DNA of 64,000 nucleotides from Candidatus Levyibacteriota bacterium (GCA_027459745.1 DAIDHL010000006.1:19578-83577); one strand, 5' to 3'; shown: positions 42,582 through 58,756, counted from the first letter of the stretch. A program made the numbers and translations. Notes: generated from the sequence alone by a model not told the origin.

Positions 42582-44333
42582 TTAATATGGTGGCCATAGC
42601 TCAATGGTTAGAGCACTAGATTGTGGATCTAGCGGTTGCGGGTTCGACTCCCGTTGGCCACCCCAAATAGGATTTGAAGGGTCAAACGTAGTAGTTTGGG
42701 TTGATTTTGCAGTCTTTTCCTCCGGTTCGAAAGTGTTTGGTTGTTGAACCATAATAGCCTTAGCTTCTTGTATCTTTTCAATGGGCTTTAGTAGGTCTAC
42801 GCTCAGTTTTTTATCCTTTAAGACGAAGTTAATTCCAAGTGCAGAAACAATTGCTCGTTTTTCGTCTGCTGAACCTTTTTCAAACCACCCTCTCGCTTGT
42901 TTAGCAAAATTAAATAATTTTTCCGAATTATCCAGCCATTCATCTTGGGTATCTCCGAGAGCCTTTATTTTTTCTTCAATCTGTTTTCTCTCTAAAATAT
43001 ACTGATTTTTCAGTTTAATATATTCATCATCACTTAAAATTTCTCCATCTTTGTTGGCTTCACTAAAGTATTTTTTGGAAAGATTGTCGAGTCTTCGTGA
43101 AGCCGCTGATATTGCAAATTTTAGATTTTTTAGCATATCAGCTCGAACATTGATATCATCTTGTCGATCTTTACGAAGGATATCCATTGTCCAGTCAATA
43201 AATTCCTGAGGTATGGTAAGGGTAGTAAGTAACTCGTCTATTTGGCGCTCTAAATCGTTTCCAGAAATGCCTGATTGAGTGCATTTAGGATTAAGGTATT
43301 TATCACAGTTGTAATGGATAAGATGTGTTACCTTTTGAGGTGCGATTGTCCCACATTTTGGGCACTTGTCATAGTTTTGAGCGTTAAATCTCTTATGACA
43401 ATTAGTGCAAGTTTTACGGAATCGTTCAGTTCCAGTAATTGATGAAGCACACATACATTTAATAAGATTAGTAAGTGGAAATTCGTGAGCCCTAACCCGT
43501 GGTTTCCCTTTGCGACCAAGAATTATTTGTGCTTTGTCAAATTCTTCTAGTGTAATCATTTGTTTATGTGCTCCTTGTAGTATTTCACCTCGGTACTTAT
43601 ACATTCCAGTATAGAATATGTTTCCAAACATTGCATACATTTGCGAGTCAGAAAGAGGTCTTCCATTCCTTCTGCGAAGTCCCCATTCGTTAGTTGCTAT
43701 TTCAAGTATTTTTGGTGGGCTGTACTGCATATCAAGAAGTAAATCCCACATTTTCCTAATTAAATTGAAACGTCTCTTATCAATAATAATATCGCGTAAT
43801 CCTTGAGGTTTTGCGGTGTTATTCAAATAACCAATAGGAGCAAGGATAGGTGCGTGTCCTGCAAGTATTTTTTCATCCATACCTCTTTTAGTAGCTTTTT
43901 GTAGATCAGTAATAAATTTATTGCTCATTCCAAACTCAACATACATAAGAAGAATATCGTCAATTCCATAGGTTTGAGTAGGCGTAACAATTTTTACGCC
44001 AAAATTTTGTACAAGCCAAATAATACGTCCTCCGTCAACAGGATTGCGAGCCAGACGATTGAGAGCCCAGCACACTATAATCTTAGCTTTTCCCTGTTCA
44101 AGTAGCTGGCACATTTCATTAAATTTAGGTCTGCCCGGTGCTTTTGCAGACTGTTCTTCTTCATAATCGGCAACTGGTTCTTGCGTATTTGTGAAGGAAA
44201 TAGTCTCATGGAATGTACGTTCCTGCGAAGAAATACTCGCCACTTGCTTATTTTTATCCTCTTGAGATTTACGTTTGTATTTTACATAAAGCTCAAGTTT
44301 ATTTCCTGCTAGGTAATATGAGTCATTATTCAT
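42582..44333 (-). CDS. Large serine recombinase (integrase): resolvase-type catalytic domain plus recombinase domain, zinc ribbon and coiled-coil
   Basis: 583 aa; LYVKYKRKSQEDKNKQ N-terminal S-containing block; CxxC...CxxC ribbon (CTNCHKRF...CPKCG); last about 28 codons are the antisense of tRNA-His (..GGQRESNPQPLDPQSSALTIELWPP). Confidence 0.75.
   Translation of the reverse strand: MNNDSYYLAGNKLELYVKYKRKSQEDKNKQVASISSQERTFHETISFTNTQEPVADYEEEQSAKAPGRPKFNEMCQLLEQGKAKIIVCWALNRLARNPVDGGRIIWLVQNFGVKIVTPTQTYGIDDILLMYVEFGMSNKFITDLQKATKRGMDEKILAGHAPILAPIGYLNNTAKPQGLRDIIIDKRRFNLIRKMWDLLLDMQYSPPKILEIATNEWGLRRRNGRPLSDSQMYAMFGNIFYTGMYKYRGEILQGAHKQMITLEEFDKAQIILGRKGKPRVRAHEFPLTNLIKCMCASSITGTERFRKTCTNCHKRFNAQNYDKCPKCGTIAPQKVTHLIHYNCDKYLNPKCTQSGISGNDLERQIDELLTTLTIPQEFIDWTMDILRKDRQDDINVRADMLKNLKFAISAASRRLDNLSKKYFSEANKDGEILSDDEYIKLKNQYILERKQIEEKIKALGDTQDEWLDNSEKLFNFAKQARGWFEKGSADEKRAIVSALGINFVLKDKKLSVDLLKPIEKIQEAKAIMVQQPNTFEPEEKTAKSTQTTTFDPSNPIWGGQRESNPQPLDPQSSALTIELWPPY
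42589..42665 (+). tRNA. tRNA-His (anticodon GTG) with G-1 and encoded CCA
   Basis: G-1 plus acceptor GTGGCCA/TGGCCAC, anticodon stem CTAGA/TCTAG with loop TTGTGGA, T-loop TTCGACT, 3' CCA. Confidence 0.85.
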
Positions 44334-44335
44334 AA

Positions 44336-44485
44336 TTAATTTTCTGGCATTTTTTTGCCAATTACACGAAAAATATTTATTAATCTTCTTGCAAGTTCTT
44401 GAACTTCTTCATCAGTAAGTACTACCCCATATCGCTTGGAATAAAGCTGTTTTAGGGTGGCAAGGTCTTCTGCTAATACGTTCAC
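44336..44485 (-). CDS. Unannotated 49-aa ORF (GTG start, SD AGGGGGTG 7 nt upstream) ending 2 nt before the integrase ATG; candidate recombination-directionality/regulatory protein
   Basis: Translation VNVLAEDLATLKQLYSKRYGVVLTDEEVQELARRLINIFRVIGKKMPEN; strong RBS; too short for the ORF track. Confidence 0.3.
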   Translation of the reverse strand: MNVLAEDLATLKQLYSKRYGVVLTDEEVQELARRLINIFRVIGKKMPEN

Positions 44486-44856
44486 AGATTGCCACCCCCT
44501 AGCTTCCCTATTTGGTAGGTATGTTTTAAGTGTATTGTCTTGAATTTGCCTAAATCAACCTTCGATAGCCACATAAGATTACACAAAAAAACAGCCCTGA
44601 AAAGGCTGTCTAAAAACAAAAAACTCAAACTTTTGTCGAACCTTTTCAGTAAACTGAATGGGTTAACGACCTTGTTTGAGTGTAATCTCTATCTCTGTAA
44701 CTCTGTTAGGTAACCTTATTTGTGTCAATTCGGTCAAGCCGAAAAGATATTCCTCAAAGAGCCTTCTAACGTCTTTGCTACTTCGATATCAGCATCGAAA
44801 CCTGATATTTAATTGTATCTTTACTGTACCACTATATGTATAAAAAAGCAAGATAT

Positions 44857-45432
44857 TTAGCCTTCTGATCTCTTATCAACTTCAAATTCAGCTTCACCAT
44901 TTTTTATTCCTAGTTTAGTTGTAATATAGCCGACAAAAGATGGTTGAGGACAATCAGCGTTAAGACGGCTCTGTTCCTCTGAAAACTCTTTAAGCTTATT
45001 TGTTAACACAAGCTCAGAATCTTTTCCCCAGCAATCAAGAGTTCTAAAAATTCGTACTCTATTATCTAAGGAGTCATAGCTACTTCCTGCTTTGTGGTGA
45101 ATTGCTGATTTTTGATTTGGGTTTAGAAATGTCATTAAACCACTGAGTGCAGCTACAATTAATGCAATAATGCCTGAAATGTTATGGGAGCCATCAAACT
45201 GAGCGAATGACTTCACAGCTACGATTCCTGAAAGGACTGTTGTAGGAACGCCCAGTAGTAGATGGAAGAAACCCCACATTGAGCTATCATTATAATGGCT
45301 TTTAGCACTGAATCGAGCAGATTCTTCAATTCTTAATGCCTCTTTTATAATTTCAGTCTTTGTTTTTGAAACTACTACTTCTGTTGCAGTTGTTTTTTTT
45401 CTTTTAGCCATATGCAGGAAAATAGTCTCCAA
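44857..45432 (-). CDS. 2-TM effector-like protein (SLATT-like), downstream partner of the nucleotidyltransferase
   Basis: 191 aa; two TM helices (FFHLLLGVPTTVLSGIVAV, ISGIIALIVAALSGLMTFL) followed by a charged C-terminal domain; 29-nt overlap with the upstream gene. Confidence 0.4.
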   Translation of the reverse strand: METIFLHMAKRKKTTATEVVVSKTKTEIIKEALRIEESARFSAKSHYNDSSMWGFFHLLLGVPTTVLSGIVAVKSFAQFDGSHNISGIIALIVAALSGLMTFLNPNQKSAIHHKAGSSYDSLDNRVRIFRTLDCWGKDSELVLTNKLKEFSEEQSRLNADCPQPSFVGYITTKLGIKNGEAEFEVDKRSEG

Positions 45433-46288
45433 ATATTAATCTCCATTGTTCTATTGCTTGCCTAATATACCCTCTATTAGCAAAATCCTCTGCTCTTATT
45501 GCTCTATTATATGCAGTTTCAAATTTTGTTACTGCATTATCTATTTTTTCAGGGGAATCTATGTAGTAGCCTATATCGCCACCATATCCAGCAGGATCAG
45601 GATTTTGTTTAGAAATGAGGGTTCTTCCTTTATCAAAGAAATATCTTGTGCCAGTGGAAAAATCACTTATGACAACATATTTCATTATTTCTAAAGCAAG
45701 TGCTTCTAAATGAAATGAATGAAAAAAACTTCCCTTTGTTCTATTCCATGCTTTTATCATTTTTATTAGTGGAACTAATTTATATTCATGTGAAGCATTG
45801 GATTCGGATATAAGCTCGACGTGTTTCGTGGGATCGGTAGCTATCCAGTTCTGTTTGATAGAGTTAGGAATTAAATATCCGCCTCCCTGGCGATGAAATC
45901 CCGGCACAACATCTATCAAAAAGTCATTAAAATGTATTGTTACTGCTTGTCCATCTCTTGATATGTGAGGCGTTCTGGTGTACGTACGTAATAGAGTACG
46001 TTTTACTAAATCCAATAGTCCAGCTTGCCCACCATTTTTACCGTTGTCATAGTTATAGAAGTATTTATTATCCAGTACTACAAAAACGTCTATATCTGCT
46101 TCTTGGAGTGGTGCAATCATTGTATGACGCTTATACGATCCTGTAAGAAAGGAGTCTTGTACGTCCATATTTGCTTCAATTGCTTCTCTAACATTGCTTT
46201 GTCTTGTTGAGACTATAGAAGATTGTGGTTCTGTTATTTCTAAATTTCTCTTAAATTGGAGGAATGATTCGTTTATAGTAATAGCCAT
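45404..46288 (-). CDS. SMODS / CD-NTase-like nucleotidyltransferase (pol-beta superfamily)
   Basis: TGSYKRHTMIAPLQEADIDVFVVLD (GS-x9-DxD) and a downstream acidic residue in DFLIDVVPG; start taken at MAITINES (46288); the ORF track extends to 46321. Confidence 0.55.
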   Translation of the reverse strand: MAITINESFLQFKRNLEITEPQSSIVSTRQSNVREAIEANMDVQDSFLTGSYKRHTMIAPLQEADIDVFVVLDNKYFYNYDNGKNGGQAGLLDLVKRTLLRTYTRTPHISRDGQAVTIHFNDFLIDVVPGFHRQGGGYLIPNSIKQNWIATDPTKHVELISESNASHEYKLVPLIKMIKAWNRTKGSFFHSFHLEALALEIMKYVVISDFSTGTRYFFDKGRTLISKQNPDPAGYGGDIGYYIDSPEKIDNAVTKFETAYNRAIRAEDFANRGYIRQAIEQWRLIFGDYFPAYG

Positions 46289-46321
46289 TTGGCAATGATT
46301 GTAGCACCATAAGATATGCAA

Positions 46322-46954
46322 CTACAATGGTTGTGATTGCCAATCACGTTTTTTTATCCAATGATATAAATTTGCTTCCGTTGTCCCATATCGTTTTGCA
46401 ATAAATCGTTGTGTGCTTCCGTTTGCCAACAAGGCTTTGATTTCCACTTCATATTGATCTAGCTTGCTTTTCCCTACGCCTTTTGGACGTCCCAGCTTGA
46501 TTCCAGCGAGTTTCTTTGCTTGCAGTGCCTCAATAGTGCGCTTGCTGATTAAATCGCGTTCAATTTCGCTTGCCATTGAGAAACACATTGCCACAAGTTT
46601 GCTTTGAATAGAGTTATTCAGCTCCCAACTCCCTTTTATAGCAAAAACATTTATTTGCTTTTGTGTAGCCACAGATAAAATTTCCATAATTTCAAGCATA
46701 GACCTTCCCAGCCTTGAGAGTTCGGAGACAATAAGATTATCTCCCTTTTGCATAGTTTCCAGCAATTCTGCAATCTTCCGCTTTCGCCACGACACTTTCC
46801 CTGATATTTGTTCAGAAACAAACTCCACATGTCCGAGTTGCTTTGTATTTGCCAGTTCCAAAATAGCTGATTTATTCTTCTCTAAGTCTTGCAAGGCAGT
46901 TGAAACTCGAAGGTAAGCATAGGTTTTAGGCTGTGAATTAAATAAAAACGTCAT
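46322..46954 (-). CDS. Small serine recombinase (resolvase/invertase, Hin/Gin-like) with a C-terminal HTH
   Basis: YAYLRVSTALQD catalytic-Ser block, SRLGRS, GRPKG plus HTH (GSTQRFIAKRYGTTEANLYHWIKK). Confidence 0.85.
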   Translation of the reverse strand: MTFLFNSQPKTYAYLRVSTALQDLEKNKSAILELANTKQLGHVEFVSEQISGKVSWRKRKIAELLETMQKGDNLIVSELSRLGRSMLEIMEILSVATQKQINVFAIKGSWELNNSIQSKLVAMCFSMASEIERDLISKRTIEALQAKKLAGIKLGRPKGVGKSKLDQYEVEIKALLANGSTQRFIAKRYGTTEANLYHWIKKRDWQSQPL

Positions 46955-47073
46955 GTTTATAATTTTATTATTATCATCCTTATAACAAAATCAAGCCTTT
47001 TCTTTTGTGGTTTCTTTTTAGGATAAATGAACGTTTTTGCTATAGAGAGCAATGCTATAATTATTCCAATATA

Positions 47074-48291
47074 ATGAAGGACTATTTCCATATCAATGAA
47101 GTTAGACCACAGGAGTTAATGCGGATATTGTTGATGCATTTCAACCAAGCTCAAAACATTAGTGATTTCACATATAGATATAAAAATCCAAGTTCAAGTA
47201 ACTATATCGATGTCTTTTGTAACGAAGATGGAAGTATAAAAAATATAGTTATATCTAAAGATTTCCCAGAAGAAGAACTTATGCAACTGAAGCAGAAAAT
47301 TCAAGATAATTTGATTACAGATAATGGCGAAATGGTTGGACAGATTATTGGTTTCTGTACAGAAAAAATATCAGGGTATTTTAAGTACAAAGATTTATTT
47401 CAAATATTTCCAGTCCCAGACAGTTCGCCAAAGCCTGATGTTGCTATTGCAGACCATCCTTTTGTTTTTGAGGTTAAGTTCAAAAAAAGTCCAGATTTTA
47501 CTATTAACAACAGTAGAAAAATGGAAAAAGCTATAATTTATTCCCGTTTATTAAATCAGTTGGTAAATCAGCACATTTGGTTAGGTAATAGGTACGGTCA
47601 ATTTGCATGGGCATACATTAATGTGGAAGATGTGGCTAATTTAACGAGCAAATGGGTTCAGTTGGGGTATATCCCAAAGGGCTTAGAAGATAACGGAGGA
47701 CGATTTTCATCACTAGATGCATTAAAACCAATAGAAAGAGAAGAATTCAATAAATACTATTCTTCTATGGGTAGGTCTACTGCAGATTTTAAGCTGCCAG
47801 ATAATTTGGAAGCCTCTTTAGACAAGGCTTTCTCTCTTGGTAGTTCCAAATGGAAGAAGTTCTTCATGGCTTGTAGCTGGTATGCTCAACATCCTTTTAC
47901 TTGGCAAGAATCACATTCATCTGCCTTTATAGAGTTAGTAACAGCTCTTGAATGCCTTGCTCAGGACAAGGATGTTTGTAAGTGCTGCAATCAACCCCTC
48001 TTGGAGAATGAAGACATCTGTAAATGCTGTGGACAGCCGCGTTATAGAGTAACAAAGCATTTCCAGCAATTCTTGAAGGAGTATGTACCAAGTATAGATC
48101 ACTATCCTCTAGCGAAAAAGACAATTTATCAAATTAGGTCGCAGCTTGCACATGGTATGGATTTATTACAGGCAGATTTAGAACCTTGGCATTTTATGAT
48201 GGATGCAAGGCAGGATGATCAGAGAAAACTACAATCTGACCTATACTTTATAACGCGTACTGCTATTTACAATTGGCTTCATAAGGCTTAA
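47074..48291 (+). CDS. Uncharacterised protein with a twin CKCC Zn-ribbon and an R-x4-H (HEPN-like) motif; defence-island cargo
   Basis: Start at ATG 47074 after a TATAAT; C-terminus CKCCNQPLLENEDICKCCGQP ... IRSQLAHG. Confidence 0.4.
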   Translation: MKDYFHINEVRPQELMRILLMHFNQAQNISDFTYRYKNPSSSNYIDVFCNEDGSIKNIVISKDFPEEELMQLKQKIQDNLITDNGEMVGQIIGFCTEKISGYFKYKDLFQIFPVPDSSPKPDVAIADHPFVFEVKFKKSPDFTINNSRKMEKAIIYSRLLNQLVNQHIWLGNRYGQFAWAYINVEDVANLTSKWVQLGYIPKGLEDNGGRFSSLDALKPIEREEFNKYYSSMGRSTADFKLPDNLEASLDKAFSLGSSKWKKFFMACSWYAQHPFTWQESHSSAFIELVTALECLAQDKDVCKCCNQPLLENEDICKCCGQPRYRVTKHFQQFLKEYVPSIDHYPLAKKTIYQIRSQLAHGMDLLQADLEPWHFMMDARQDDQRKLQSDLYFITRTAIYNWLHKA

Positions 48292-48300
48292 TGTATAAGC

Positions 48301-49044
48301 ATGAAAAAGCAAAAAATTAAAGCTAGCAAATTACGAAACACCTCTGATCCTACTTTAGCAAAACCACACGCAAAAGGAGCAAATGTAGCTCTTGTTCAGC
48401 CGTCAAAAGACAATGTATGGGGAAGATTTTACTTTGTTCAATATCATAGGTATCCGCTGTTGCTTTCCAAAAGCGCAAATTACTACAAGGACGTAATTGA
48501 TTTACTGACAAAAGCAAGAGCTTTACCCGTAGGAAAAGATAATACTCGATTATTAGATGACCAGTTGCGCGATGAACTTGAATTTGCCTCTATGCAGTTT
48601 CTGATTTTTACCAAACTTGCATTTGAATATATGACTACAGAAATGCTAACAATGATAAACAACATCCATCTCCACAAAGGCGGTAAAGTTGAAGTTCCTT
48701 GGGAGAACTTTTCAATTACTGAACGCTTGACCATACTTCTTAAAAATTTGAATCTTAAATTTATTGTTCCTGATTGTCTCAATAAAATTCTTACTAATAG
48801 AGATTTAGTTGAACATCCTTCAAAAGATCGTCTTTACTCCCCGACAGAAGACGAGTGGAAAAATGTGCATCTTGCATGGGTACTTAGTGGAGAGATAGAA
48901 GGTTGCTTAGATAAACTTGTGAACTTTGTTAATCCAATCATTGAAGCATTTGATAAATTTGTTGATGCAAATCAAATTCCTGGACAATTAACGGGTCTGC
49001 AAAGAGGATTAAAATCGATAGATAATTTCAAAAAGTCAAAGTAA
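48301..49044 (+). CDS. Uncharacterised protein with an R-x4-H motif (TNRDLVEHPS); likely operon partner of the 47074 gene
   Basis: 9-nt intergenic gap; no recognisable family. Confidence 0.35.
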   Translation: MKKQKIKASKLRNTSDPTLAKPHAKGANVALVQPSKDNVWGRFYFVQYHRYPLLLSKSANYYKDVIDLLTKARALPVGKDNTRLLDDQLRDELEFASMQFLIFTKLAFEYMTTEMLTMINNIHLHKGGKVEVPWENFSITERLTILLKNLNLKFIVPDCLNKILTNRDLVEHPSKDRLYSPTEDEWKNVHLAWVLSGEIEGCLDKLVNFVNPIIEAFDKFVDANQIPGQLTGLQRGLKSIDNFKKSK

Positions 49045-49053
49045 AAGTGGTAA

Positions 49054-49779
49054 TTATAAAGAATCTGCGTAAGCTTGAATTAGAAGTTTTGCTCGTTCTT
49101 TACATTCGTTTTCTGTTAATCTCCTATTTGCAGGAGTAACGGCATGTCTTTGAAGTTGAGTCGTTTGTCTAACATCTGTTGCAAATGACTCATTTTGTCC
49201 AGCGAGTGCTGCGAGTTGTCTCCAACCACCTACATGATGGGCAATTATTTCAAGTGCCTTATAGATGCCATAAAGAGGTTTGTCGTCATCAATAATTTCT
49301 TCATTAAAATAATGTAATGCGTGTTTTAAGGTATCATCATTAAGCGCTTTATTTACTATTAAAGTATCATTTATAGGGCTAGCGCTATCGTGCATTTCCT
49401 GCGTTACTATGAGTGCTGTGCCTTGTATAGTTACTTGGTGAGTTGTTGTCTGAATCTGAACGCGTTCTACTGCCTTTGCAGCATCATGTATTCCTAAGAA
49501 GTGATCTTTGTGTCCTTCAGCATTTGTTTTCCATGTATGGTTGAAATTAACACTTACTTTTATATTTTGCCGGAAAGCCCATGCATCTAAGTATAATTCT
49601 GCAATATTTTTTGCTTCTTCAAGTTGATTCTCGTCATCTACACCAACGTACAAAATTCCATCTCTTATTTCTATTTCAGTACCATCGGGATTATAAAAAA
49701 CTTCACAAACATCCTTAAAGGGAAAATTGATAATCTCGCCTTGAATTCCGTAGGGTTTGTTCATAAATGATAACTTCAA
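49054..49779 (-). CDS. Uncharacterised 241-aa protein translationally coupled to the Type III res gene
   Basis: TTG start overlapping the res TGA (TTGA overlap); alternative ATG 15 nt downstream (49762-49764). Confidence 0.35.
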   Translation of the reverse strand: MKLSFMNKPYGIQGEIINFPFKDVCEVFYNPDGTEIEIRDGILYVGVDDENQLEEAKNIAELYLDAWAFRQNIKVSVNFNHTWKTNAEGHKDHFLGIHDAAKAVERVQIQTTTHQVTIQGTALIVTQEMHDSASPINDTLIVNKALNDDTLKHALHYFNEEIIDDDKPLYGIYKALEIIAHHVGGWRQLAALAGQNESFATDVRQTTQLQRHAVTPANRRLTENECKERAKLLIQAYADSL

Positions 49780-52085
49780 AGAAATGTTATTTGTTTCAAT
49801 ACATCATCTAAGTTTGTTTTGCTAACAAGATAAAATTTATTTCCATTACCATTTAACTTCTCCCATAATTCACCAAGTTTAACTTTATAGGCAGTATCTT
49901 CATTAGAAAGTCTGTCTTCACCTTTATATTCTAATAACAAATAATCACCGTTTTTTGTTTTTACAATGATATCAGGATAGAATTTTCCTGACTGCCAACC
50001 TTGAAGGTAAAAATCTTCTTTTTCTCTGTTTCTATACCACCATTCAATGTTATCAATAATATCTAGTCTTGAAGCCAACTCAGTTTCTTCTCCATTCAAA
50101 TTTCCTGCCTTTTCAAATAAATGTTTATTGAAGTGTTCTTGAGAAACTCTTGCTAGAGAAATTTCTTTTTCTGGAGTAAAGTAAGCAGAATCAACAGTTA
50201 TTTCTCCTTTGTTCAATAATCCGTCAAACCGCTTTGTCGCATACTCTTGTATTATTTTTGATACTTCTTCTGCTATTCGTTCCTTTAGCCTAAATCTGTT
50301 TAGACTTAATTCTTCTACGCTATGCGTCTTGGATAAATCCTTCATAAGAAGATCAATATATCTTGCCATTTCTTCAGAAGCTATTATTGGTTTCCTCACA
50401 TTTCTTTTAAGCCAGTTAGTTACTTCTTCAAGTGAAAAATCCTCTGGGTAAAGAATTAAAGATAATTTCCCCTGTGTAATTTTGAAAAGTCCATTCTTCT
50501 CGTCAATATCAATTACAGCTTTTCTATTTTGATCTTCGTGGAAGTTGATATCAAACGGTTTGTAATATTCGTCAAGCATAAACTCATTTCCAATTAAATC
50601 TCTATTAAAGGCAAGACTGTCTGTTCTTCCTTTCAATCCAAACATAGGAATGTTAATGTTGTCATCTTTAATTACTTGTTTGTATTCTTCCTTTTCAACA
50701 ACAATTTTTCCTTTGTTTTCCTTTAAGTCCTCTCTAGAGTAGCCATGCTGTTCAAGCCCTTTAATTATTGCGTCTGAGGCTTTCCTAAAATTCTCTGAGG
50801 ATGTAAATACATAGGAGTTGTTGAGTTCTAAGTTTTTCTTTTCTACAGCATTAGGAAGACGCATAATACGTCCTATGGTTTGTTCTACCGCTATTGTAGA
50901 ACCAATGTTAGCTACTGATACTAACACGTAAGCAAATGGACAGTCCCAGCCTTCTTTTAGCGCATTAACTGTAATGATGTAGCGTATATTACATTTAGGT
51001 GATAAAAGATCAATATTACTTATTTCGTCTTGTTTGGAAGTTTTGATTGCAATTTCATTTTCTGAAATTTTAAGCTCGGAAATTAAGAATTCCTTAATTT
51101 GATCAACATAAATTTTACTCTCACTTTCCTTTTCTTGTTCTGCCTGTAGCAACATAATGGGTCTTATGTATTCTTTTGTCTCACGCTTTTCTTTTTGAGC
51201 CAGTTTTTCTAGTTCTTTTAATTGGTTTATTCCATCTCTGATTGTTTCTTGCCATTGAGAAACATTAGATAGCCAAATAGGAATCTTTACCATTTTTTGT
51301 GCTTTTAATTCTGAAGCTGAAATTTCAACTAACACATTGCTTTCTTGCCTTGGTGTGGCAGTGTATTCAATGATAAAGGAGGGGTTAAGATTTTGAAGCA
51401 TCTCAAAAGAAAGTGGGGTTTGAGCATTGTGTCCTTCATCTAATACTACAATAGGCGAATTGATTTTAATAACATTGGCAAGAGAGTAATAAATTCCTCC
51501 TTCTTCGTCTTTATCCAAAAAGTTAGTATCCTCAACAAGATTTTCAAAATGAGAAAGTAAAGCTCCATTACTCTGGAATACTTTTAGCCACAATTTGTCA
51601 TTTCTTCTGAAAGCTGCAAGACTAGAGACAACAATACAAAGGTTATTTTGTATATCTGATTTTTGAATAGAAAGAGCTTCTTCTACGGTAAAAATTTTTA
51701 TATTGTTACCAAACTGAGAATCCAGTGCTTCTCGGTATGGATGGTTTCTGTCTTTTAATGCCTTGAGTGTTTGATTACGAATTGCATCGGATGGGACAAA
51801 CCACATGACAAGTCCTGTTCCATTTTTCTCTTGTAAGTAATTATCAAGGATAACTGATAAGCTATGACAAGCAACGACTGTTTTCCCTCCACCTGTAGGA
51901 ATTTTGATACAAACAAATGGAGTTTCTTCAAGTTGTGGGATAGGTTTATATGCCTTTCCTTCTTCTCCTGCTTTATCTAAAAATGCTAGTCTTATACCTC
52001 TTGAGCCTTTAAGCGTAGAAGCGTCATTAAGGAATTGTTTTAATTCATCAAGTGCTGTTTGTTGGTAAGGTTTTAATTGGAACAT
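49776..52085 (-). CDS. res: Type III restriction enzyme Res subunit (SF2 helicase plus C-terminal PD-(D/E)xK nuclease)
   Basis: Walker A KIPTGGGKTVVA, DEGH box (VVLDEGHNAQT), C-terminal YPDIIV...LLEYKG nuclease motif. Confidence 0.8.
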   Translation of the reverse strand: MFQLKPYQQTALDELKQFLNDASTLKGSRGIRLAFLDKAGEEGKAYKPIPQLEETPFVCIKIPTGGGKTVVACHSLSVILDNYLQEKNGTGLVMWFVPSDAIRNQTLKALKDRNHPYREALDSQFGNNIKIFTVEEALSIQKSDIQNNLCIVVSSLAAFRRNDKLWLKVFQSNGALLSHFENLVEDTNFLDKDEEGGIYYSLANVIKINSPIVVLDEGHNAQTPLSFEMLQNLNPSFIIEYTATPRQESNVLVEISASELKAQKMVKIPIWLSNVSQWQETIRDGINQLKELEKLAQKEKRETKEYIRPIMLLQAEQEKESESKIYVDQIKEFLISELKISENEIAIKTSKQDEISNIDLLSPKCNIRYIITVNALKEGWDCPFAYVLVSVANIGSTIAVEQTIGRIMRLPNAVEKKNLELNNSYVFTSSENFRKASDAIIKGLEQHGYSREDLKENKGKIVVEKEEYKQVIKDDNINIPMFGLKGRTDSLAFNRDLIGNEFMLDEYYKPFDINFHEDQNRKAVIDIDEKNGLFKITQGKLSLILYPEDFSLEEVTNWLKRNVRKPIIASEEMARYIDLLMKDLSKTHSVEELSLNRFRLKERIAEEVSKIIQEYATKRFDGLLNKGEITVDSAYFTPEKEISLARVSQEHFNKHLFEKAGNLNGEETELASRLDIIDNIEWWYRNREKEDFYLQGWQSGKFYPDIIVKTKNGDYLLLEYKGEDRLSNEDTAYKVKLGELWEKLNGNGNKFYLVSKTNLDDVLKQITFL

Positions 52086-52086
52086 A

Positions 52087-53715
52087 TTAGAATTTCTTTA
52101 GCTCGTAAGGAATTTGCTTAAAGATAATATTGTTTTTCAAGCAAAATTCTTCATCCAATAGGCACTTATCTGCATAAATTACTTTAATCCCATCTTGAGC
52201 AAGCATAGGTTTCACTGATTTATCATCCAAGACATTTTTACCATTACTTGAGAATAAGAGAAAGTAATGACTTTGTCCCATACTCCCAAGATATGGATTT
52301 TTAATAGAGGTTAAATCAAGGTAGTCATGAGTCTCGGTAAAGTAAATGTATGAGGCTAAATCTTCATATTGAGAGTTTGGATTAATAAAACCACTATTAT
52401 CAAAAAGTTCTCCATTTAATTCAAGATATTGAAAACCTTGTCCTGTTCCATCTGGATATTTTGCTCCTTCATAACCTTCAATGACTTTTTGCAATCTCTT
52501 TGCGGTGACGTTTCTCGCGATATTCTTTTCAAGCTCAATAAGAATAAATCTTCTGTTACCACCATCCTCATTATTTGATTCAAGAACAGCTTGACCTGTT
52601 GTGCCAGAGCCAGCAAAAGAGTCTAAGTATATTCCATCCGGATCCCCCATGAGTTGAATAACTTTGTTTATCAATCCTACTGGTTTGGGAAATGGAAATT
52701 GTTCTCTTAAACCCATGAACCGAAGTTGTGTAGTTCCTTGCTCAGTTATTACCTCCGTTTCATCCCATATAGTCTTAGCACTTACATTAGCATTTCTATA
52801 TTTCTCAAATATTCTCCACTCTCCCGTTTGTTTTTGCTTAGCATAGATAACATCTGTTGACTCATTTTTAGTATTTTCATTTAATTTTTTACCACTCCAC
52901 CTCCAGCAACTTTCTTCATTTCTACTATTAAGTGGTAAAACTTCAACGCTAAACTCCTTACTCTTTTCATTAGATACTGGTGAAAATCCATTTTCATCTT
53001 TCTTTTGAGGGTTTACATAGATTGGATAATAGAGATTGGGTCGGTTAAATCGTCCAAATTTTGGATTACGATTTCTTAACTCTCTACTAGAAAAATCCCC
53101 GATCCTATCTTTTTCAGGCAAATGCCCTTCATCTGCATTTAATTGGTATAATTTTGTCTTGTTAGTTTTTGAATAACAAAGGAGATATTCATGTGTTTTT
53201 GCTAATTGCTTAAAGGTATGACCACGTTTATTTGATTGAACAATTATTTGAGCTTGGAAATTATTTTCTCCGAAAATTTCATCCAAAATTAATCTTAGAT
53301 AATGAACCTCATTGTCATCAATTGAAACAAAAATTGCTCCATCATCAGAGAGAAGTTCATATAGAAGTTTTAGACGTGGATACATCATGCAAAGCCATTT
53401 ATCATGTCTACACAAATCTTCACCTTCTGCGCCAACGACCTCATTAAGCCATGCTCTAATTTGAGGTGAATTTACCTTGTCATTGTAAACCCATTCTTCA
53501 TTTCCAGTATTGTAGGGGGGATCAATATAAACGCATTTGACTTTGTTGTAATAAAAGGGCATCAATGCTTTGAGAGCCTCAAGGTTATCTCCTTCAATTA
53601 GGAGATTCTCAGAACCATCAACAGATAACGCTTTATTTGGTTTTAACACTCTAAATGGCAGGTCTTTATCGTGGTTTTCTACCTTATCTTTTCCAATCCA
53701 TGTAAATTGTGGCAT
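52087..53715 (-). CDS. mod: Type III Mod DNA methyltransferase (beta-class amino-MTase)
   Basis: Motif IV VYIDPPYNTGN precedes motif I DSFAGSGTTGQA; 1-nt gap to res. Confidence 0.8.
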   Translation of the reverse strand: MPQFTWIGKDKVENHDKDLPFRVLKPNKALSVDGSENLLIEGDNLEALKALMPFYYNKVKCVYIDPPYNTGNEEWVYNDKVNSPQIRAWLNEVVGAEGEDLCRHDKWLCMMYPRLKLLYELLSDDGAIFVSIDDNEVHYLRLILDEIFGENNFQAQIIVQSNKRGHTFKQLAKTHEYLLCYSKTNKTKLYQLNADEGHLPEKDRIGDFSSRELRNRNPKFGRFNRPNLYYPIYVNPQKKDENGFSPVSNEKSKEFSVEVLPLNSRNEESCWRWSGKKLNENTKNESTDVIYAKQKQTGEWRIFEKYRNANVSAKTIWDETEVITEQGTTQLRFMGLREQFPFPKPVGLINKVIQLMGDPDGIYLDSFAGSGTTGQAVLESNNEDGGNRRFILIELEKNIARNVTAKRLQKVIEGYEGAKYPDGTGQGFQYLELNGELFDNSGFINPNSQYEDLASYIYFTETHDYLDLTSIKNPYLGSMGQSHYFLLFSSNGKNVLDDKSVKPMLAQDGIKVIYADKCLLDEEFCLKNNIIFKQIPYELKKF

Positions 53716-53760
53716 AATTACCTTTTCATCTTACCACAGGAATAATTATCTTCAAAGAGG

Positions 53761-53779
53761 AAACTCTAAGGTCTTAGAC
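53761..53779. repeat. 19-bp motif AAACTCTAAGGTCTTAGAC (palindromic core CTAAG-gt-CTTAG), copy 1, 46 nt upstream of mod
   Basis: Exact inverted copy at 56129-56147. Confidence 0.7.
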
Positions 53780-54034
53780 TGTCGAAGGGTAAAGAGCATC
53801 AACAGGTACTTCCAAAGCCTTGGCTATACGATATAGCGTATAACTGGAAGGAGTACGCTTGGCTACTTCAATCAAGTTGATATATGTGCGGTAGAATTGG
53901 CATTTACTTGCCAGTTCTTCTTGTGACAACCCTTTTTTTGTTCGAGCTTTCTTGATGTTATCTCCAATAATCTCTGTGAACTTCTGTTTGCTAAGCATGC
54001 TTCCATTGTCAGAAATAATCGCACTATTGTACAA
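53774..54034 (-). CDS. XRE-family HTH transcriptional regulator (candidate controller/C-protein or satellite repressor)
   Basis: IKKARTKKGLSQEELASKCQFYRTYINLIEVAKRTPSSYTLYRIAKALEV HTH_3 pattern; 86 aa. Confidence 0.7.
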   Translation of the reverse strand: MYNSAIISDNGSMLSKQKFTEIIGDNIKKARTKKGLSQEELASKCQFYRTYINLIEVAKRTPSSYTLYRIAKALEVPVDALYPSTV

Positions 54035-54100
54035 CGCACTATTAGTCAGTTTGTATCTTGATTTTCTTGTTAAACCAATTTATTATGAAAAGTAAGAGGT

Positions 54101-54718
54101 ATGAGACCTGAATCAATTTATAGACCGATTTATCTTTGGTTAAGCAATCAGCCAAAGTGGTTGCAGATTGGTGTTCCCCTAGTTGTTTTAGTATTATCGT
54201 TTATTGTTCTTCAATGGTTTGGATTGATAGTCATGGCTGCTGTTTTAGTCTTTACGTTTGTCTATGGACGCAAAGACCCTGATGTCAGTAGGCGCTTTAC
54301 GATTAAATACATCACAGGTTTGTCAAAGTTTTCAAAACCAATGAGCAATATGGCTCTATATATTGATGAAGATGGATTACGCTTCAAATATCCATTACGA
54401 GGCGAGGTAAAAGTTGCTTACGACACAATCAGTAAGATGGAAGCTGAAACAAAAACACAAATTACCAGAACCGCAAGTATGCTCAAGGGTGCAGTTGGAT
54501 TAGCTCTTGCTGGTCCCTTGGGAGCCATGATAGGTATGGGCATAGGTAGTAAACATGACGATTCACAATATTTTGTTACGGTGGTTTACAAAGATGAACT
54601 AGGAGAAGATAACCTTATTGTTTTGCAACAAAGTGGGATGATGTCCGCAAATGCGTATGAGGTTGTATCCGCTATGAAAGAGGCAAGGAAAAGGTATATA
54701 CTCTCACATAAAAATTAG
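54101..54718 (+). CDS. Hypothetical membrane protein (2 N-terminal TM helices, a C-terminal Gly-rich helix)
   Basis: ORF; 2-nt gap to the FtsK-gamma-like gene. Confidence 0.3.
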   Translation: MRPESIYRPIYLWLSNQPKWLQIGVPLVVLVLSFIVLQWFGLIVMAAVLVFTFVYGRKDPDVSRRFTIKYITGLSKFSKPMSNMALYIDEDGLRFKYPLRGEVKVAYDTISKMEAETKTQITRTASMLKGAVGLALAGPLGAMIGMGIGSKHDDSQYFVTVVYKDELGEDNLIVLQQSGMMSANAYEVVSAMKEARKRYILSHKN

Positions 54719-54719
54719 T

Positions 54720-54923
54720 TTGCTTATGGATAGTGCTTTGTATTTGGCTGCAAAAAATATATTCAAAGATGAAGTTTCTATTAGCACCGCTACACTTCAA
54801 CGATATTTCCAGGTTCCATATTACCAAGCCCGAGTAGTTTTAGATAGCCTCATTCGAATTGGATTTTGTGAGGAACAAGTTGGAAGTAAGCCTTGTCGGG
54901 TTATATCAAATGAAAAAAACTAA
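54720..54923 (+). CDS. Standalone FtsK-gamma (winged-helix, KOPS-binding-like) domain protein
   Basis: SISTATLQRYFQVPYYQARVVLDSLIRIGFCEEQVGSKPCRVI resembles the FtsK gamma consensus ...ASTS.LQRRL.IGYNRAAR..D.ME..G.V...GSKPREVL. Confidence 0.5.
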   Translation: MLMDSALYLAAKNIFKDEVSISTATLQRYFQVPYYQARVVLDSLIRIGFCEEQVGSKPCRVISNEKN

Positions 54924-55006
54924 GAAAGAAGTAGATAAAGAGGTTGATTTGTTTGCAGAACAATTCGCAAGGTTGCTTATCGAACAAGTTAGGTGGAAAA
55001 GAAACA

Positions 55007-55306
55007 ATGGATTGGCTAACACCACAACTAAGAAAAAAAGTAAGGGAAGTCTTTGAGCCACGGTATAAACGGAAGTTAACTGAAGCTGAGGTTGAAGAAA
55101 TCGCAGATAATTTAAGCGAAGTGGTTGAAGTTATTCTCAATTCAAATGGAGGCAAAAATATAGCAATGACAATACTGGAGGCAAGAAAGAAGCTAGGGGA
55201 AAAAGCAGATAAGTACACAGATGTCCAGCTTCAGAAAATAATAAATATGCTTACAATTTTGTGTAGTAAAACAATTGATTTAGTTATAGAAAAAACAGAA
55301 AAATAA
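55007..55306 (+). CDS. Hypothetical 99-aa acidic protein
   Basis: ATG at 55007 in frame within the ORF that the track starts at 54944. Confidence 0.3.
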   Translation: MDWLTPQLRKKVREVFEPRYKRKLTEAEVEEIADNLSEVVEVILNSNGGKNIAMTILEARKKLGEKADKYTDVQLQKIINMLTILCSKTIDLVIEKTEK

Positions 55307-55373
55307 CAGGGTTCTCATAAAACTTGTGTCCTTACGTAGGTATTCATGCAAGGAAGTGAACTCACCCGCAAAG

Positions 55374-55406
55374 AAAACCGAGGTTCTAGCCGATCTCGGT
55401 TTTTTG
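55374..55406. terminator. Bidirectional rho-independent terminator AAAACCGAG-gttctagccgat-CTCGGTTTTTT between convergent genes
   Basis: GC stem with A-run upstream and T-run downstream. Confidence 0.6.
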
Positions 55407-55511
55407 TTTGAGTACCCTCTTAAAAATACGAACGCCTTGGATTCTGGTTGCTCCGTAGAAGTACGTTTTAGCAATTAGGATAATATGAGTGGTTTGAGGA
55501 TAAAAAGGCTT

Positions 55512-56096
55512 TTACAAGCTATCCTGAGCTGTTTGGCTACTTTGTCTTTTCGCTTCTTGCTCTTTCAACCATTCTGCTTCTTCCTCCGCAGTTTGAATAA
55601 TCCTGTATGGAGGTAAGGGCTGCCCATTAGCCCAAGTCATGTGAACTGGTGGTTTTGGTTGTGTGCCTATGTTTACAACAGTATTTTGAACTTGTTCTGG
55701 TTTATCAAATGGAATTCCAAGTCCAAGCGCTTCTAAGCGTAACCCTTCTACTAAGTAGCTGAGAACATCTTTTGCGCTTTGGGGTTCTAGTCCTTCCTCT
55801 GCGAGTAGACGCAGGGCTTTGCTTGAAATTAGCCTACCTACATCCAATTGTTTTTTGCGGTAAATGGTTACATCATTAATAGCTTCTTTTTGTATGCGCT
55901 TATATATTCCTTGAAGCACCTCCGCACGTTTTCGTGGCCATCCGTCCCTGTACCCCTTGTACTCAATTAGCCTCAATTGAATATTGTGCTTTTCTGCGAG
56001 TTTCTGGTAAGACATTTTCTCGTCCGTAACGTAATCATAAAAGATTTGATTCCAGTCAATTTGTTGTTCGGTGGTAGAATTTTCCATTCTACCCAT
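55512..56096 (-). CDS. Possible terminase small subunit-like / HTH DNA-binding protein
   Basis: N-terminal SYQKLAEKHNIQLRLIEYKGYRDGWPRKRAEVL HTH-like segment; about 190 aa; weak. Confidence 0.3.
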   Translation of the reverse strand: MGRMENSTTEQQIDWNQIFYDYVTDEKMSYQKLAEKHNIQLRLIEYKGYRDGWPRKRAEVLQGIYKRIQKEAINDVTIYRKKQLDVGRLISSKALRLLAEEGLEPQSAKDVLSYLVEGLRLEALGLGIPFDKPEQVQNTVVNIGTQPKPPVHMTWANGQPLPPYRIIQTAEEEAEWLKEQEAKRQSSQTAQDSL

Positions 56097-56128
56097 ATTT
56101 TACCCCTAAGTTGTCAAGTTTTTTTAAT

Positions 56129-56147
56129 GTCTAAGACCTTAGAGTTT
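56129..56147. repeat. 19-bp motif copy 2 (GTCTAAGACCTTAGAGTTT, the reverse complement of copy 1) in the promoter region of the 55512-56096 gene
   Basis: Exact match to 53761-53779 in inverted orientation. Confidence 0.7.
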
Positions 56148-56219
56148 TTATATACCAGACATATAAATTAAACTTTTCATCACTGGCTCCTAATTGTGAT
56201 TAAGAACCAGAGTCAAAAG

Positions 56220-56534
56220 CTAATTTTTAGAATTAACTTTGAGACTGTAAATGTCTAGTTCATCAGTCTCGATATCATGTTTTTTATTCATTTCATCCCA
56301 TGCTTGTTCAACCTCTTGGGATAGAGCTTCTGCCACCCTTACTTCAAGAATTAGCATTTGGTAATCAAATAGTGTATCTGTACTGACTTTGTGTGCCTCC
56401 GTTTTTTTCAGTTCTTTTATGAGAGCGAGCTTTGCTTCATGACAATATGCTTTGTGATTTTTGACATATTCGTTTAATGCATCATCAACTGTTTCTAGCT
56501 CACATTCGTCAAGATTGCTAAATTTGTTTTGCAT
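56220..56534 (-). CDS. Hypothetical acidic 104-aa protein
   Basis: ORF only. Confidence 0.3.
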   Translation of the reverse strand: MQNKFSNLDECELETVDDALNEYVKNHKAYCHEAKLALIKELKKTEAHKVSTDTLFDYQMLILEVRVAEALSQEVEQAWDEMNKKHDIETDELDIYSLKVNSKN

Positions 56535-57704
56535 TGTTTCTCACCCCCTTTCTCAGAATTTTGAATTTGTGTATTTTCATGCGAGGTTACATAACCCATT
56601 GCAGTCTTTGTTTTTATTTCAGGTTCAAGATTGTCGTAATATCTAATCATTTCTGTTCGAAAATCATCACCTCTACCTAATTCATTACGAGTTTTCTCAA
56701 GATTACGAAGAAACAATTCTTTTGATCCAGTTTTTATGCAACGTCTAGCAACTCCTTTTAATTGACGTATTTTGTATTCTTCTTCAACCTTACGTTTACT
56801 CTCCCACCATTTCTTAATTCCTTCGGGAGTATTTTCAACCTTACCATTATCAATAGCCCACTGTAGTTGAATTTCTGCTGTTGATTTTTGGTGTATGATT
56901 TTTTCAACCTCTCCGTTTTGAATACCAGTTTTCACGAATGATTCAATCGCTGCTTTATAATCTGAATACTTTTTGCCATTTGCCCGACAATATAATTCCA
57001 GTTCATCCTTCTTTTTTATCACTGCATTTAATGAGACACTAAGCCTTGTAGCAATTTCTTCTAAATCGTCCTCCTGTATTTGTTCAAGTTGTGAATATTT
57101 TCTGATACCCCTCACTACTTTTGATGTATTAATTACTTTAGCTTTTGGGTTTACTTCTGAGGTTGGTTTCACTCCAATGCTAGGAATGACATTACTTATA
57201 GGATGGTTATCAGTAAAAAAATTATTTGGCTTTTTTGTATTTAAGTTACTATCTTTAGTATTTGTATTCGGAAACTCCATGCTCTGGTTATCAGGGGTAT
57301 TGGATTGTAAATCACCACTATCCGGATTTTCAGGTGTATGGTTTTGATTAGGGTAAAAATAATTGACCTTAATGTAATGTCCCACTATTCTCCCATGTTT
57401 GTCCTTTCTGGTCACAGACTCTATAAATCCTTCTTTCAAAAGAACTTCTTTTGCCAAGCCAAATTTGTCTTTTCCCCATCCAAGTCCTTTTCGACAGTAT
57501 GTATCGGTTGCATGGATATTGTCTCTGTGTCCATATTTTTGTGATTGCCATAATGCAGTAAGGTAATAGTGGTTGTACAACTGTGTAGCATTAGCGCCAA
57601 GTTTGTGGAGCCGAATGAAAGTAGCCATAGGTATGGATACAGTATTTTGGTTAATTACATTAAATTGTTCAATAATGTCATCATTCTGTTTCATATAGAG
57701 CCTC
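56495..57704 (-). CDS. Putative replication initiator / replisome-organiser-like protein
   Basis: Start at ATG 57704 with SD GAAGGGAGG; N-terminal winged-helix-like segment (ATFIRLHKLGANATQLYNHYYLTALWQ); adjacent AT-rich, repeat-containing non-coding region. Confidence 0.3.
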
Positions 57705-58189
57705 CCTTCATACAAAAAAAGCGATACCAACTACTTCAGTTGATACCGCCGGGCGATTACTCGCTTCATCGGATTTGTGTTGTATTAGCTTGCCATAAAA
57801 AAATCCGCTTTGTGCTAGCTCTTAGGGAAGGCTCTGTGGTTAGCCAAGAGCAAGCACGAAACGGACTTTTACCACAGCTATTACCCTAATCTATTTATAA
57901 ATTAAATTTATTCGAATGTCAACGATTAGATTGATATAGCAACATAATCGTTAATAATATTATTAACTAAAATTATGAATCGAAATTATATATTGAAATA
58001 TAATTGGTAACGCAGTAGTATGATTTGATAGTAGGGGTTTCATAATACAGGTATGGCGTATTGGAAATTCGTTTCCTTTACAGCGGTTCTAAAATCCTGT
58101 ATCCAAGTACCCACTTTTTTAAATATTATCGGATCAATTATCTTCATTTCTTACACGTTTTTGGTACAATTTGTATTAATATTAGCCTG

Positions 58190-58756
58190 ATGAAGATTGC
58201 TTTGTTTGGTGGACGTTTTGATCCAGTTCACAATGGTCATATTGCTGTTGCAAAAGAAATTTTGAAGTTACAAATTGCCGATCAGGTTTGGCTCCTTCCT
58301 GACGCAGCTCATCAGTGGAATCCTATTGTCGCTAGTTCTGCTGACCGGGTTGAAATGTTAAAATTAGCGATTAAAAATGAAAAAAACCTCAAGGTTAATT
58401 TAACAGCAATTGATTTAGGTGGATCAACGGAAACGATTAAAGTTCTACATGCCTTAAAAAATAAATACGATCACGAATTTGTTTTCGTTGGAGGTTCTGA
58501 TCAGTTGCCTAGTTTGCATAAATGGACACATTGGGAGCAGCTAGAAAAAGAATTACCTTTTATCATCGTCAATCGAAAAAATTACCCTATTCAACATAAC
58601 TTCACTAACGTTCAAGTTATTAACGATATTGACTATGAGCCGTTAGAAGATTCCTCTACGAGAATAAGATCATTGTTGAGTCATCATCAATCAATTAAGG
58701 GTTTGGTTAATCCAGAGGTGGAAGAATATATTGCACAGAAAAAATTATATGTGTAA
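58190..58756 (+). CDS. nadD: Nicotinate-nucleotide adenylyltransferase
   Basis: MKIALFGGRFDPVHNGHIAVAKEI (HxGH), later ISSTRIR-type block (SSTRIRS); start at the internal ATG 58190. Confidence 0.8.
   Translation: MKIALFGGRFDPVHNGHIAVAKEILKLQIADQVWLLPDAAHQWNPIVASSADRVEMLKLAIKNEKNLKVNLTAIDLGGSTETIKVLHALKNKYDHEFVFVGGSDQLPSLHKWTHWEQLEKELPFIIVNRKNYPIQHNFTNVQVINDIDYEPLEDSSTRIRSLLSHHQSIKGLVNPEVEEYIAQKKLYV

Follow-up and report, generated by a model that had tools for sequence, protein, structure and literature searches.

A stretch of 64,000 nucleotides from Candidatus Levyibacteriota bacterium (GCA_027459745.1 DAIDHL010000006.1:19578-83577; hereafter the window) very probably harbors, at positions 42664-58112, a site-specific integrative element of 15,449 bp that belongs to a previously uncatalogued family of small, probably Candidate Phyla Radiation (CPR), genomes. 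We propose that it is inserted in the 3′ end of a tRNA-His gene by a large serine recombinase (LSR) which, judged by its sequence, is a member of a clade in which every relative that was looked up lies at tRNA-His. A preliminary description of this DNA had claimed a discrete integrative element in a CPR genome, and the claim is upheld by the LSR clade at tRNA-His, a shared attachment (att) core, the junction in an independent contig (L070), and the cofE-like gene left of the element, which is 61-77% identical to genes in Candidatus Levyibacteriota and Roizmanbacteria metagenome-assembled genomes and places the host of the window in the CPR (Patescibacteria). Integrative-element status is firmly supported; a satellite lifestyle, which that description had also suggested, is plausible but unproven.

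The recombinase has the domain organization of a serine integrase, namely an N-terminal resolvase domain with a nucleophilic Ser and a large C-terminal extension with a Cys cluster in a protein of 450-700 aa. Its catalytic domain (PF00239, residues 18-122, E 6.3e-15) contains the YKRKS motif, with S23 invariant in 22 homologues, and its C-terminal extension (PF07508, E 1.3e-5) has eight Cys residues that are invariant in the family alignment; disregarding a read-through tail, the protein is ~550 aa long. From these features it is a bona fide LSR, and attP x attB recombination is predicted. It is also divergent. Identity to GenBank phage integrases is 22-25% at most, solved structures include no relative beyond the catalytic domain, and NCBIfam similarity to XisF and CcrA/B/C is weak. 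No relative of the element was found in IMG/VR or among GenBank phages, the LSR clade being nearly absent from IMG/VR viral contigs (a profile search gave one match, at 24% identity), and no exact-protein match for nadE, the LSR, or the 49-aa open reading frame (ORF) beside the LSR is on record.

The location of the recombinase’s relatives is what ties it to its target. In a search for homologues, 863 proteins were recovered at E <= 1e-10, and many of them are ~550 aa long and lack a tRNA read-through tail. Contigs fetched for six homologues of 48-57% identity (P0004, P0005, P0010, P0015, P0034, and P0038) gave nine loci, and at all of them the recombinase gene ends antisense in tRNA-His, as identified by ARAGORN for L061/L062, L063, L064-L066, and L067 and by alignment for L059 and L060, whose contigs stop in the tRNA T-arm. 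The host genes 5′ of tRNA-His represent at least four contexts: a Leu-Pro-Gly-Lys-His tRNA array (L067), tRNA-Thr and DnaB (L064), Cas4-like and rhodanese genes (L063), and P-type ATPase and DinB genes (L061). Because these host flanks differ, the position of the LSR at tRNA-His reflects targeting and not inherited synteny. A trace of the target can also be read in the proteins themselves, 38 of the 49 full-length homologues with >=45% identity ending in ...NPxWG(G/D/E), the antisense of the CCA, discriminator, and acceptor end. Distant homologues carry DSNP or DSNL tails, typical of antisense T-arms, which suggests that deeper branches of the clade target other tRNAs.

The element had been described as adjacent to tRNA-His; the tRNA was correctly named, but the relationship is closer than adjacency. 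The LSR ORF crosses the entire tRNA-His antisense, the crossover lies within tRNA nt 71-74, and the final 30 LSR residues (GQRESNPQPLDPQSSALTIELWPPY) are tRNA-His read backwards. The tail is predicted to differ by state, with 24 aa (...WGTWIQDFRTAVKETNFQYAIPVL) in the excised form and 30 aa in the integrated form. If this is true, a recombinase that differs between the two states could sense integration state or control directionality. As a separate observation, the recombinase ORF overlaps the att core clade-wide (P0001-P0120), its stop codon and C-terminal tail being set by the tRNA sequence. The extent of read-through varies: some homologues stop at a TGA in the acceptor stem (...WGG*), and others, including the one in the window, run 30-45 aa through the tRNA.

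Both ends of the element share the core ACCC (attL 42660-42663; attR 58109-58112), the short bounding core expected of a large serine recombinase. The junction sequences are ...GGCCACCCCAAATAGGATTT... at attL and ...CCAAGTACCCACTTTTTTAAAT... at attR, the predicted attB is ...CCCGTTGGCCACCCACTTTTTTAAATATT..., and the predicted attP is ...CCTGTATCCAAGTACCCCAAATAGGATTTGAAGG.... Joining the left and right host arms rebuilds an attB (...GGCCACCCACT, also written ...GTTGGCCACCCACT...) that equals the native tRNA-His ends of relatives L020 and L021 over the shared part, and the native end of L001, also CCACC-CAC, is consistent with it. These native genes end in ...CCACC-CAC-..., with no encoded CCA, whereas all occupied sites, when junctions are aligned in the tRNA sense, read ...CCACC-CCA-A(A/T)(A/T)(A/G)GGAT... 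and run into the LSR gene. On the host side of the window’s right junction (...CCAAGTACC-CAC-TTTTTT), the CAC TTTTTT resembles native tRNA-His trailers. On this comparison, the element swaps the tRNA’s CAC trailer for an encoded CCA, such that the final tRNA bases come from the element; because it supplies these last bases, including the encoded CCA, tRNA-His remains intact.

The right end had been put at 57900 and proves to be ~200 nt further on, at 58112. It is backed by an independent Logan contig, L070 (SRR34502217, 3,000 nt), which matches window 55139-58112 at 100% identity over 2,974 nt and departs from it at 58113. Beyond the element, L070 has 26 unrelated bases (L070 1-26; CAATTGGGATAGTACACGAACGGAAA in window orientation) that are absent from the window, all fetched loci, and IMG/VR. 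This tail (CAATTGGGATAG...) resembles both the element-side arm of occupied sites and a native trailer. It may derive from an attP or tandem junction to a different LSR allele, or else from integration in a second host context. Three relatives repeat the tRNA-His 3′ end at their far ends, with 17/17 (L067), 19/20 (L064), and 15/19 (L063) matching positions; the att repeats of relatives span 7-20 bp, as against the 4-bp core in the window, where no long direct repeat of the tRNA was found at the far end with up to 5 mismatches in 20 nt and where local alignments of the element’s two ends are no better than shuffles (p 0.08 and 0.52).

Comparison with relatives had been recommended for defining the att sites, and it delivered the ACCC core and a rebuilt attB that fits L020, L021, and L001; it did not deliver an isogenic empty site, the best flank being 77% identical. 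L020 and L021 (flank gene 70% identical) lack the element and carry unrelated genes after tRNA-His. In the closest flank relative, L001 (77% identical flank gene), tRNA-His is followed by an insertion sequence (IS)-like zinc-ribbon ORF (L001 1-294) and then the contig end. Relatives that have the cofE-like gene and tRNA-His as left flank thus carry other genes after the tRNA, the opposite of the uniform gene order that had been named as speaking against an insertion. A distant relative, L010, lends weak support only, with nadD-nadE 3.5 kb from its cofE-like gene but without tRNA-His. The IS-type ORF of L001 also suggests a hotspot that other mobile DNA uses as well.

Some of these observations weigh against an element with the boundaries given here. 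The common core in the window has only 4 bp and is convincing only together with L070 and the native trailers; no excision (attP) or empty-site (attB) junction turned up for this particular element; the collections searched contained no relative above 77% flank identity, hence no true isogenic empty site; and the 26-nt tail of L070 might, in principle, be an assembly artefact. One could suppose that the region is not mobile at all, being either a vertically inherited variable region or part of a contig that is chimeric at the tRNA or at 58112. Base composition (GC) in the element region is the same as in the flanks, synteny past tRNA-His varies in all relatives, and the divergence of L070 at 58113 could flag a misjoin. 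We nevertheless consider this explanation extremely unlikely: the antisense LSR/tRNA-His junction is present in all nine fetched loci, from independent assemblies that include contigs of 0.8-1 Mb; terminal repeats occur in three relatives; and the sequence on the host side of attR includes the native CAC trailer, as it should for a tRNA-His gene without an insertion.

Between tRNA-His and nadD (true ATG at 58190, Pfam CTP_transf_like; nadE then adjoins) lie 17 ORFs, whose identities were screened against Pfam, PHROGs, PADLOC, and NCBIfam. All the genes listed in the preliminary description (LSR, 49-aa ORF, XRE regulator, the cyclic oligonucleotide-based antiphage signaling system (CBASS), three unknowns, Type III restriction-modification (R-M), and the TerS-like and Rep-like genes) are present and intact; the inventory was incomplete in that it overlooked a 210-aa Mpi-family invertase (46322-46954). 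The features, with helix-turn-helix abbreviated as HTH, are as follows.

42590-42665, plus strand: tRNA-His (GUG), the integration target (ARAGORN; Rfam tRNA, 71 bits)
42660-42663, plus strand: attL core ACCC, tRNA nt 71-74, common to attR
42582-44333, minus strand: LSR, 583 aa when integrated (Pfam Resolvase and Recombinase)
44336-44485, minus strand: 49-aa ORF, 2 nt upstream of the LSR, with homologues beside related LSRs
44857-45432, minus strand: CBASS two-transmembrane (2TM) membrane effector (PADLOC PDLC00712, E 1.4e-52)
45404-46321, minus strand: CBASS CD-NTase, an oligonucleotide cyclase (Pfam SMODS, E 2.8e-27; PADLOC cyclase, E 4.4e-102)
46322-46954, minus strand: small serine recombinase, Mpi-family DNA invertase-like, 210 aa (Pfam Resolvase PF00239, E 2.4e-27; NCBIfam PRK13413, E 9e-54)
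47005-48291, plus strand: cargo ORF, 428 aa, with a Cys-rich segment, no match
48301-49044, plus strand: cargo ORF, 247 aa, no match
49054-49779, minus strand: cargo ORF, 241 aa, no match, 4-nt overlap with the res stop
49776-52085, minus strand: Type III restriction subunit Res (Pfam ResIII; PADLOC REase_III, E 2.7e-94)
52087-53715, minus strand: Type III methyltransferase Mod (Pfam N6_N4_Mtase, E 5e-36; PADLOC MTase_III, E 2.6e-158, full length)
53761-53779, no strand: perfect 19-nt inverted repeat, left copy, in the interval separating the XRE stop from the mod start
53774-54034, minus strand: XRE-family HTH regulator (Pfam HTH_3, E 4.5e-13)
54101-54718, plus strand: 205-aa membrane protein, divergent from XRE (phrog_17658, unknown function, E 9e-7)
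54944-55306, plus strand: 120-aa ORF, marginal matches only
55512-56096, minus strand: TerS-like protein (phrog_1206)
56129-56147, no strand: 19-nt inverted repeat, right copy, located 33-51 nt ahead of the start of the TerS-like ORF
56220-56534, minus strand: 104-aa ORF between Rep and the TerS-like gene, also called in L070
56495-57694, minus strand: DnaD-like “Rep,” 399 aa (phrog_186)
57750-57720 and 57868-57795, minus strand: two hairpin and U-run structures upstream of Rep (fold z-score -3.95; terminator scan)
57900-58050, no strand: AT-rich patch, candidate origin (GC 0.18-0.22; 13-nt unit x 2.7; 9+9 palindrome)
58109-58112, plus strand: attR core ACCC, element right end (L070 divergence at 58113)

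No capsid, portal, large-terminase, tail, lysis, relaxase, or type IV secretion system (T4SS) family was detected in any ORF in the Pfam, PHROGs, and NCBIfam scans, in agreement with the earlier statement that large terminase and capsid genes are missing. The gene set of a prophage (capsid, portal, large terminase, tail, and lysis) is accordingly not seen here, and neither are the relaxase or T4SS families of an integrative and conjugative or mobilizable element. An Rfam scan of the window returned tRNAs only.

An all-against-all comparison identifies the small ORF by the LSR and the XRE gene as common to related elements, with all else differing. Homologues of the 49-aa ORF (33-54% identity) lie beside the LSR in L060, L062, L063, L064, and L067 and, by tblastn, in L059, and XRE homologues (30-47% identity) occur in three related elements (L060, L062, and L063). 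The 49-aa ORF has no family match in Pfam, PHROGs, or NCBIfam; as a conserved neighbor it is a candidate recombination directionality or accessory factor of the LSR. The ~9 kb that separates it from XRE in the window is occupied by the CBASS, invertase, unknown, and R-M genes, and because the same interval holds only few genes in L062 and L063, it acts as a cargo slot. Related elements also encode replication proteins: L064 has a phrog_1408 Rep (E 5e-10) with a 49%-identical homologue in L063, and L059 has a PriCT primase-type protein. The related elements contain no structural genes and measure 8.7 kb in L067 (abutting tRNA-Arg), 8.0 kb in L064, and ~8.1 kb in L063 (abutting copper-resistance genes).

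These sizes bear on whether the element is a decayed prophage that lost its structural and lysis genes and was then colonized by defence genes. Phage-type modules (XRE, DnaD-like, TerS-like, and LSR) without virion genes are what such a remnant would leave. Its ORFs, however, are all intact, both att junctions are recognizable, the 2,974-nt segment is 100% identical in another assembly with a different junction, and those relatives whose terminal repeats are exact or nearly so all measure ~8-8.7 kb and likewise lack structural genes. Small size is uniform among the related elements that have intact ends; it is therefore a family property and not the outcome of random decay, and for this reason we regard a prophage remnant as quite improbable.

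For the integrative element, we propose the following cycle. The element’s attP would recombine with the tRNA-His 3′ end across the common core ACCC, the 49-aa ORF product would set LSR directionality, and the XRE protein would hold the element quiescent. After excision, the DnaD-like protein is expected to fire an origin in the adjoining AT-rich patch. The TerS-like protein might then steer a helper phage’s terminase and capsids to package the element, a step that we advance only tentatively. The cargo between the integration and regulatory modules, comprising a type I CBASS, a Type III R-M system, the Mpi-like invertase, and three unknown genes, would benefit the host.

The replication step rests on Rep and its surroundings. 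The 399-aa product, which is also called in L070, matches phrog_186 (DnaD-like helicase loader) over residues 41-171 (E 4.2e-6), is otherwise an orphan, and starts at ATG 57694 with a GGAGG Shine-Dalgarno sequence upstream. The profile search proposed for this gene thus gave one weak PHROG match and nothing else, by which Rep may, weakly, be read as a DnaD-like replication protein; no primase or helicase domain was found in the replication module. An AT-rich repeat region had been reported next to Rep, and the adjoining patch at 57900-58050 is indeed AT-rich, but its repeats are weak, amounting to the 13-nt unit and one palindrome listed above. We infer that it is a candidate origin. The hairpins at 57720-57868, between this patch and the Rep start, match no Rfam family and could represent a small regulatory RNA or an attenuator of Rep.

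Packaging by a helper phage through the TerS-like protein is the weakest step, somewhat less than an even prospect in our estimate, and depends on what the TerS-like protein is. An exhaustive HMMER search recovered 96 homologues of 140-190 aa; among the best 60, small-terminase PHROGs are matched by 39 (phrog_1206, best E 2.5e-23), 19 (phrog_51), and 19 (phrog_2606). An AlphaFold (AF2) model built with the homologue alignment (pLDDT 87) shows an HTH of three helices, followed by a helix of 47 residues and a return helix; an HTH with a long helical hairpin is the TerS architecture. The top BFVD match in Foldseek is a small terminase, at a borderline E of 5e-4. On these homologues and this model, the protein is probably, though not proven to be, a small terminase. 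The TerS-like assignment made earlier therefore holds to a moderate degree by way of the homologues, but the protein’s own match covers the HTH only and the fold match is borderline.

The same data can be read without a satellite. In this alternative, of nearly equal weight and in our view a serious contender just short of even, the element is an integrative defence island or plasmid-like replicon: the LSR moves it, Rep maintains an episome, the TerS-like protein is an HTH/coiled-coil regulator or a partition-type protein, and spread occurs by natural transformation or generalized transduction. Observations that weigh against a packaged satellite are at the same time arguments for such an island. 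The TerS-like protein’s own phrog_1206 match (E 2.8e-5) is confined to the N-terminal HTH, 39 of the 60 homologues also match phrog_4151 (“DNA binding protein”), and no PDB TerS fold match is significant, the top one being 2ao9 (a phage protein) at E 0.45. Most related LSR elements have Rep-type genes and no TerS-like gene, and the LSR clade, as noted, is almost missing from IMG/VR viral contigs. Further against a satellite, the TerS-like protein has no match in GenBank phages (tblastn) or IMG/VR, the Rep assignment is a single weak PHROG match, and no helper phage is present in the window and no pac/cos site was found. L067 carries a different TerS-like gene (phrog_51, E 1.5e-7) that is not homologous to the one in the window, and other related elements show none; because of this, packaging is not a family-wide trait.

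What speaks for packaging over an island is that the TerS-like homologues match three PHROG small-terminase families, that the predicted fold and top BFVD match are those of a small terminase, that the gene lies downstream of Rep in the same orientation, and that a second element (L067) has independently come to carry a TerS-like gene. Word-index homologue searches for the TerS-like protein and Rep returned only the proteins themselves; scans of viral and phage collections with Rep, the TerS-like protein, the LSR, a TerS homologue, and the L070 tail returned nothing; and GenBank phages contained no tblastn match to the TerS-like protein, to Rep, or to either of two TerS homologues. The closest TerS-like homologues lie on 1.5-kb contigs.

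The comparison with phage-inducible chromosomal islands (PICIs), to which the element had been likened, is similarly divided. The likeness holds for the layout. As in PICIs (e.g. Staphylococcus aureus pathogenicity islands, SaPIs), a ~15-kb element has an integrase at one end, an HTH regulator with a divergent neighbor, a replication gene by an AT-rich putative origin, a small-terminase-like gene, and defence cargo, with no capsid, large-terminase, or lysis genes; its 15,449 bp fall within the ~8-18 kb typical of satellites that lack virion structural, large-terminase, and lysis genes. The likeness does not extend to homology. The integrase here is a large serine and not a tyrosine recombinase, the regulator is a generic XRE and not of the Stl/AlpA type, and the element has no Pri-Rep/D5-type primase-helicase, AlpA/Stl homologue, or ppi/cpm genes. 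None of the element's genes shows detectable homology to PICI markers, and the host belongs to the CPR. Neither a helper phage nor a pac/cos site nor an excision junction turned up, and no induction of the element is known. That these 8-15 kb replicons, with a divergent LSR clade targeting tRNA 3′ ends, a recombinase C-terminus and stop written by the attachment site, and a defence-gene hotspot, might form the first phage-satellite-like family in the CPR is a bolder proposal, which we think unlikely to hold in full.

Other known systems share individual features with the element. Insertion at the 3′ end of a conserved gene is known from other serine-integrase elements, such as SCCmec, whose CcrAB acts at rlmH/orfX, and those of the phiC31, Bxb1, and A118 integrases. 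Like these, the element combines Resolvase and recombinase domains and a Cys-rich zinc module with a short core and a small adjacent candidate directionality gene; unlike them, it targets a tRNA gene, a habit of tyrosine integrases, and its recombinase ORF overlaps the crossover. The archaeal integrases of the SSV type are tyrosine recombinases with attP inside the gene and a tRNA target, and their integration splits the gene in two halves. The window’s recombinase also has attP within its gene, a tRNA target, and an ORF altered on integration, but only the last codons and the stop change, as predicted from the two tail lengths (24 aa excised versus 30 aa integrated). P4-like satellites, PICIs, and Prochlorococcus tycheposons are small tRNA-associated elements with variable, often anti-phage cargo at a fixed spot between backbone modules. 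Here the cargo similarly lies between the orf49-LSR module and XRE, where relatives carry other genes, whereas the recombinase class, the backbone genes, and the phylum are different. Among Int-Y integrases, 10 of 15 attB sites were in tRNA genes (PMC8092301). In the limited library consulted, which is not proof of novelty, we found no description of CPR satellites, tRNA-dedicated serine integrases, or this element family, and no serine integrase whose recombinase ORF overlaps the crossover inside a tRNA gene.

The genomes of CPR bacteria are tiny, few mobile elements have been described in them, and tools for their genetics are almost entirely lacking. A native site-specific system with a target at the tRNA-His 3′ end, predicted attP and attB, and a candidate directionality factor is a possible engineering tool for the CPR and a possible new serine-integrase specificity. 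The element also exemplifies CBASS and Type III R-M being borne into a reduced genome by a small integrative element, and it offers a specific case in which to ask whether phages of the CPR have satellites.

The CD-NTase and 2TM effector genes overlap and have no Cap2/Cap3 or HORMA/TRIP13 genes adjacent, as in type I CBASS, and Mod is followed by Res with the genes 1 nt apart, as in Type III R-M. The three ORFs at 47005-48291, 48301-49044, and 49054-49779 have no significant match in Pfam, PHROGs, PADLOC, or NCBIfam, nor does the 428-aa ORF against PDB sequences; given their neighbors they are candidate new defence genes, and the 241-aa ORF (49054-49779) may be part of the R-M operon. XRE was considered as the R-M controller (C) protein and is unlikely to be one: in related elements, R-M genes are not annotated next to the homologous XRE genes, and XRE itself does not have the palindromic site upstream.

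The invertase gene and the inverted repeat raise a further possibility. The 46322-46954 product is a small serine recombinase with a C-terminal HTH, as in invertases, and its NCBIfam match to the Mpi-like family (residues 12-204, 182 bits) is below the 272-bit equivalog cut-off. The 19-nt inverted repeat (AAACTCTAAG GT CTTAGAC and its complement) has half-sites that are palindromic around a non-palindromic GT/AC center, like hix/gix crossover sites, and exact copies of its core 14-mer occur only at the two window sites. The pair bounds 2.35 kb that hold XRE, the 205-aa and 120-aa ORFs, and the TerS-like gene; the invertase gene is 7 kb away. Inversion of this segment could serve as a switch, separating mod-res from XRE and TerS from Rep; alternatively, the repeats could be a repressor operator at two promoters (candidate XRE site TCTAAGGTCTTAGA). 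L070, the sole independent contig, keeps the order of the window through the right repeat, and no flipped form was seen.

Related loci carry various other defence-like or accessory genes near the LSR. Upstream of it, L061/L062 (894-6185) encode a TIR-domain protein, a KAP NTPase, a second recombinase, and Fic, and L060 (3628-6758) encodes a tyrosine integrase and Amidase_3. In L064 (3098-6629), an AAA_15 ATPase lies inside the element repeats and a MazE-Fic pair just beyond the far-end repeat.

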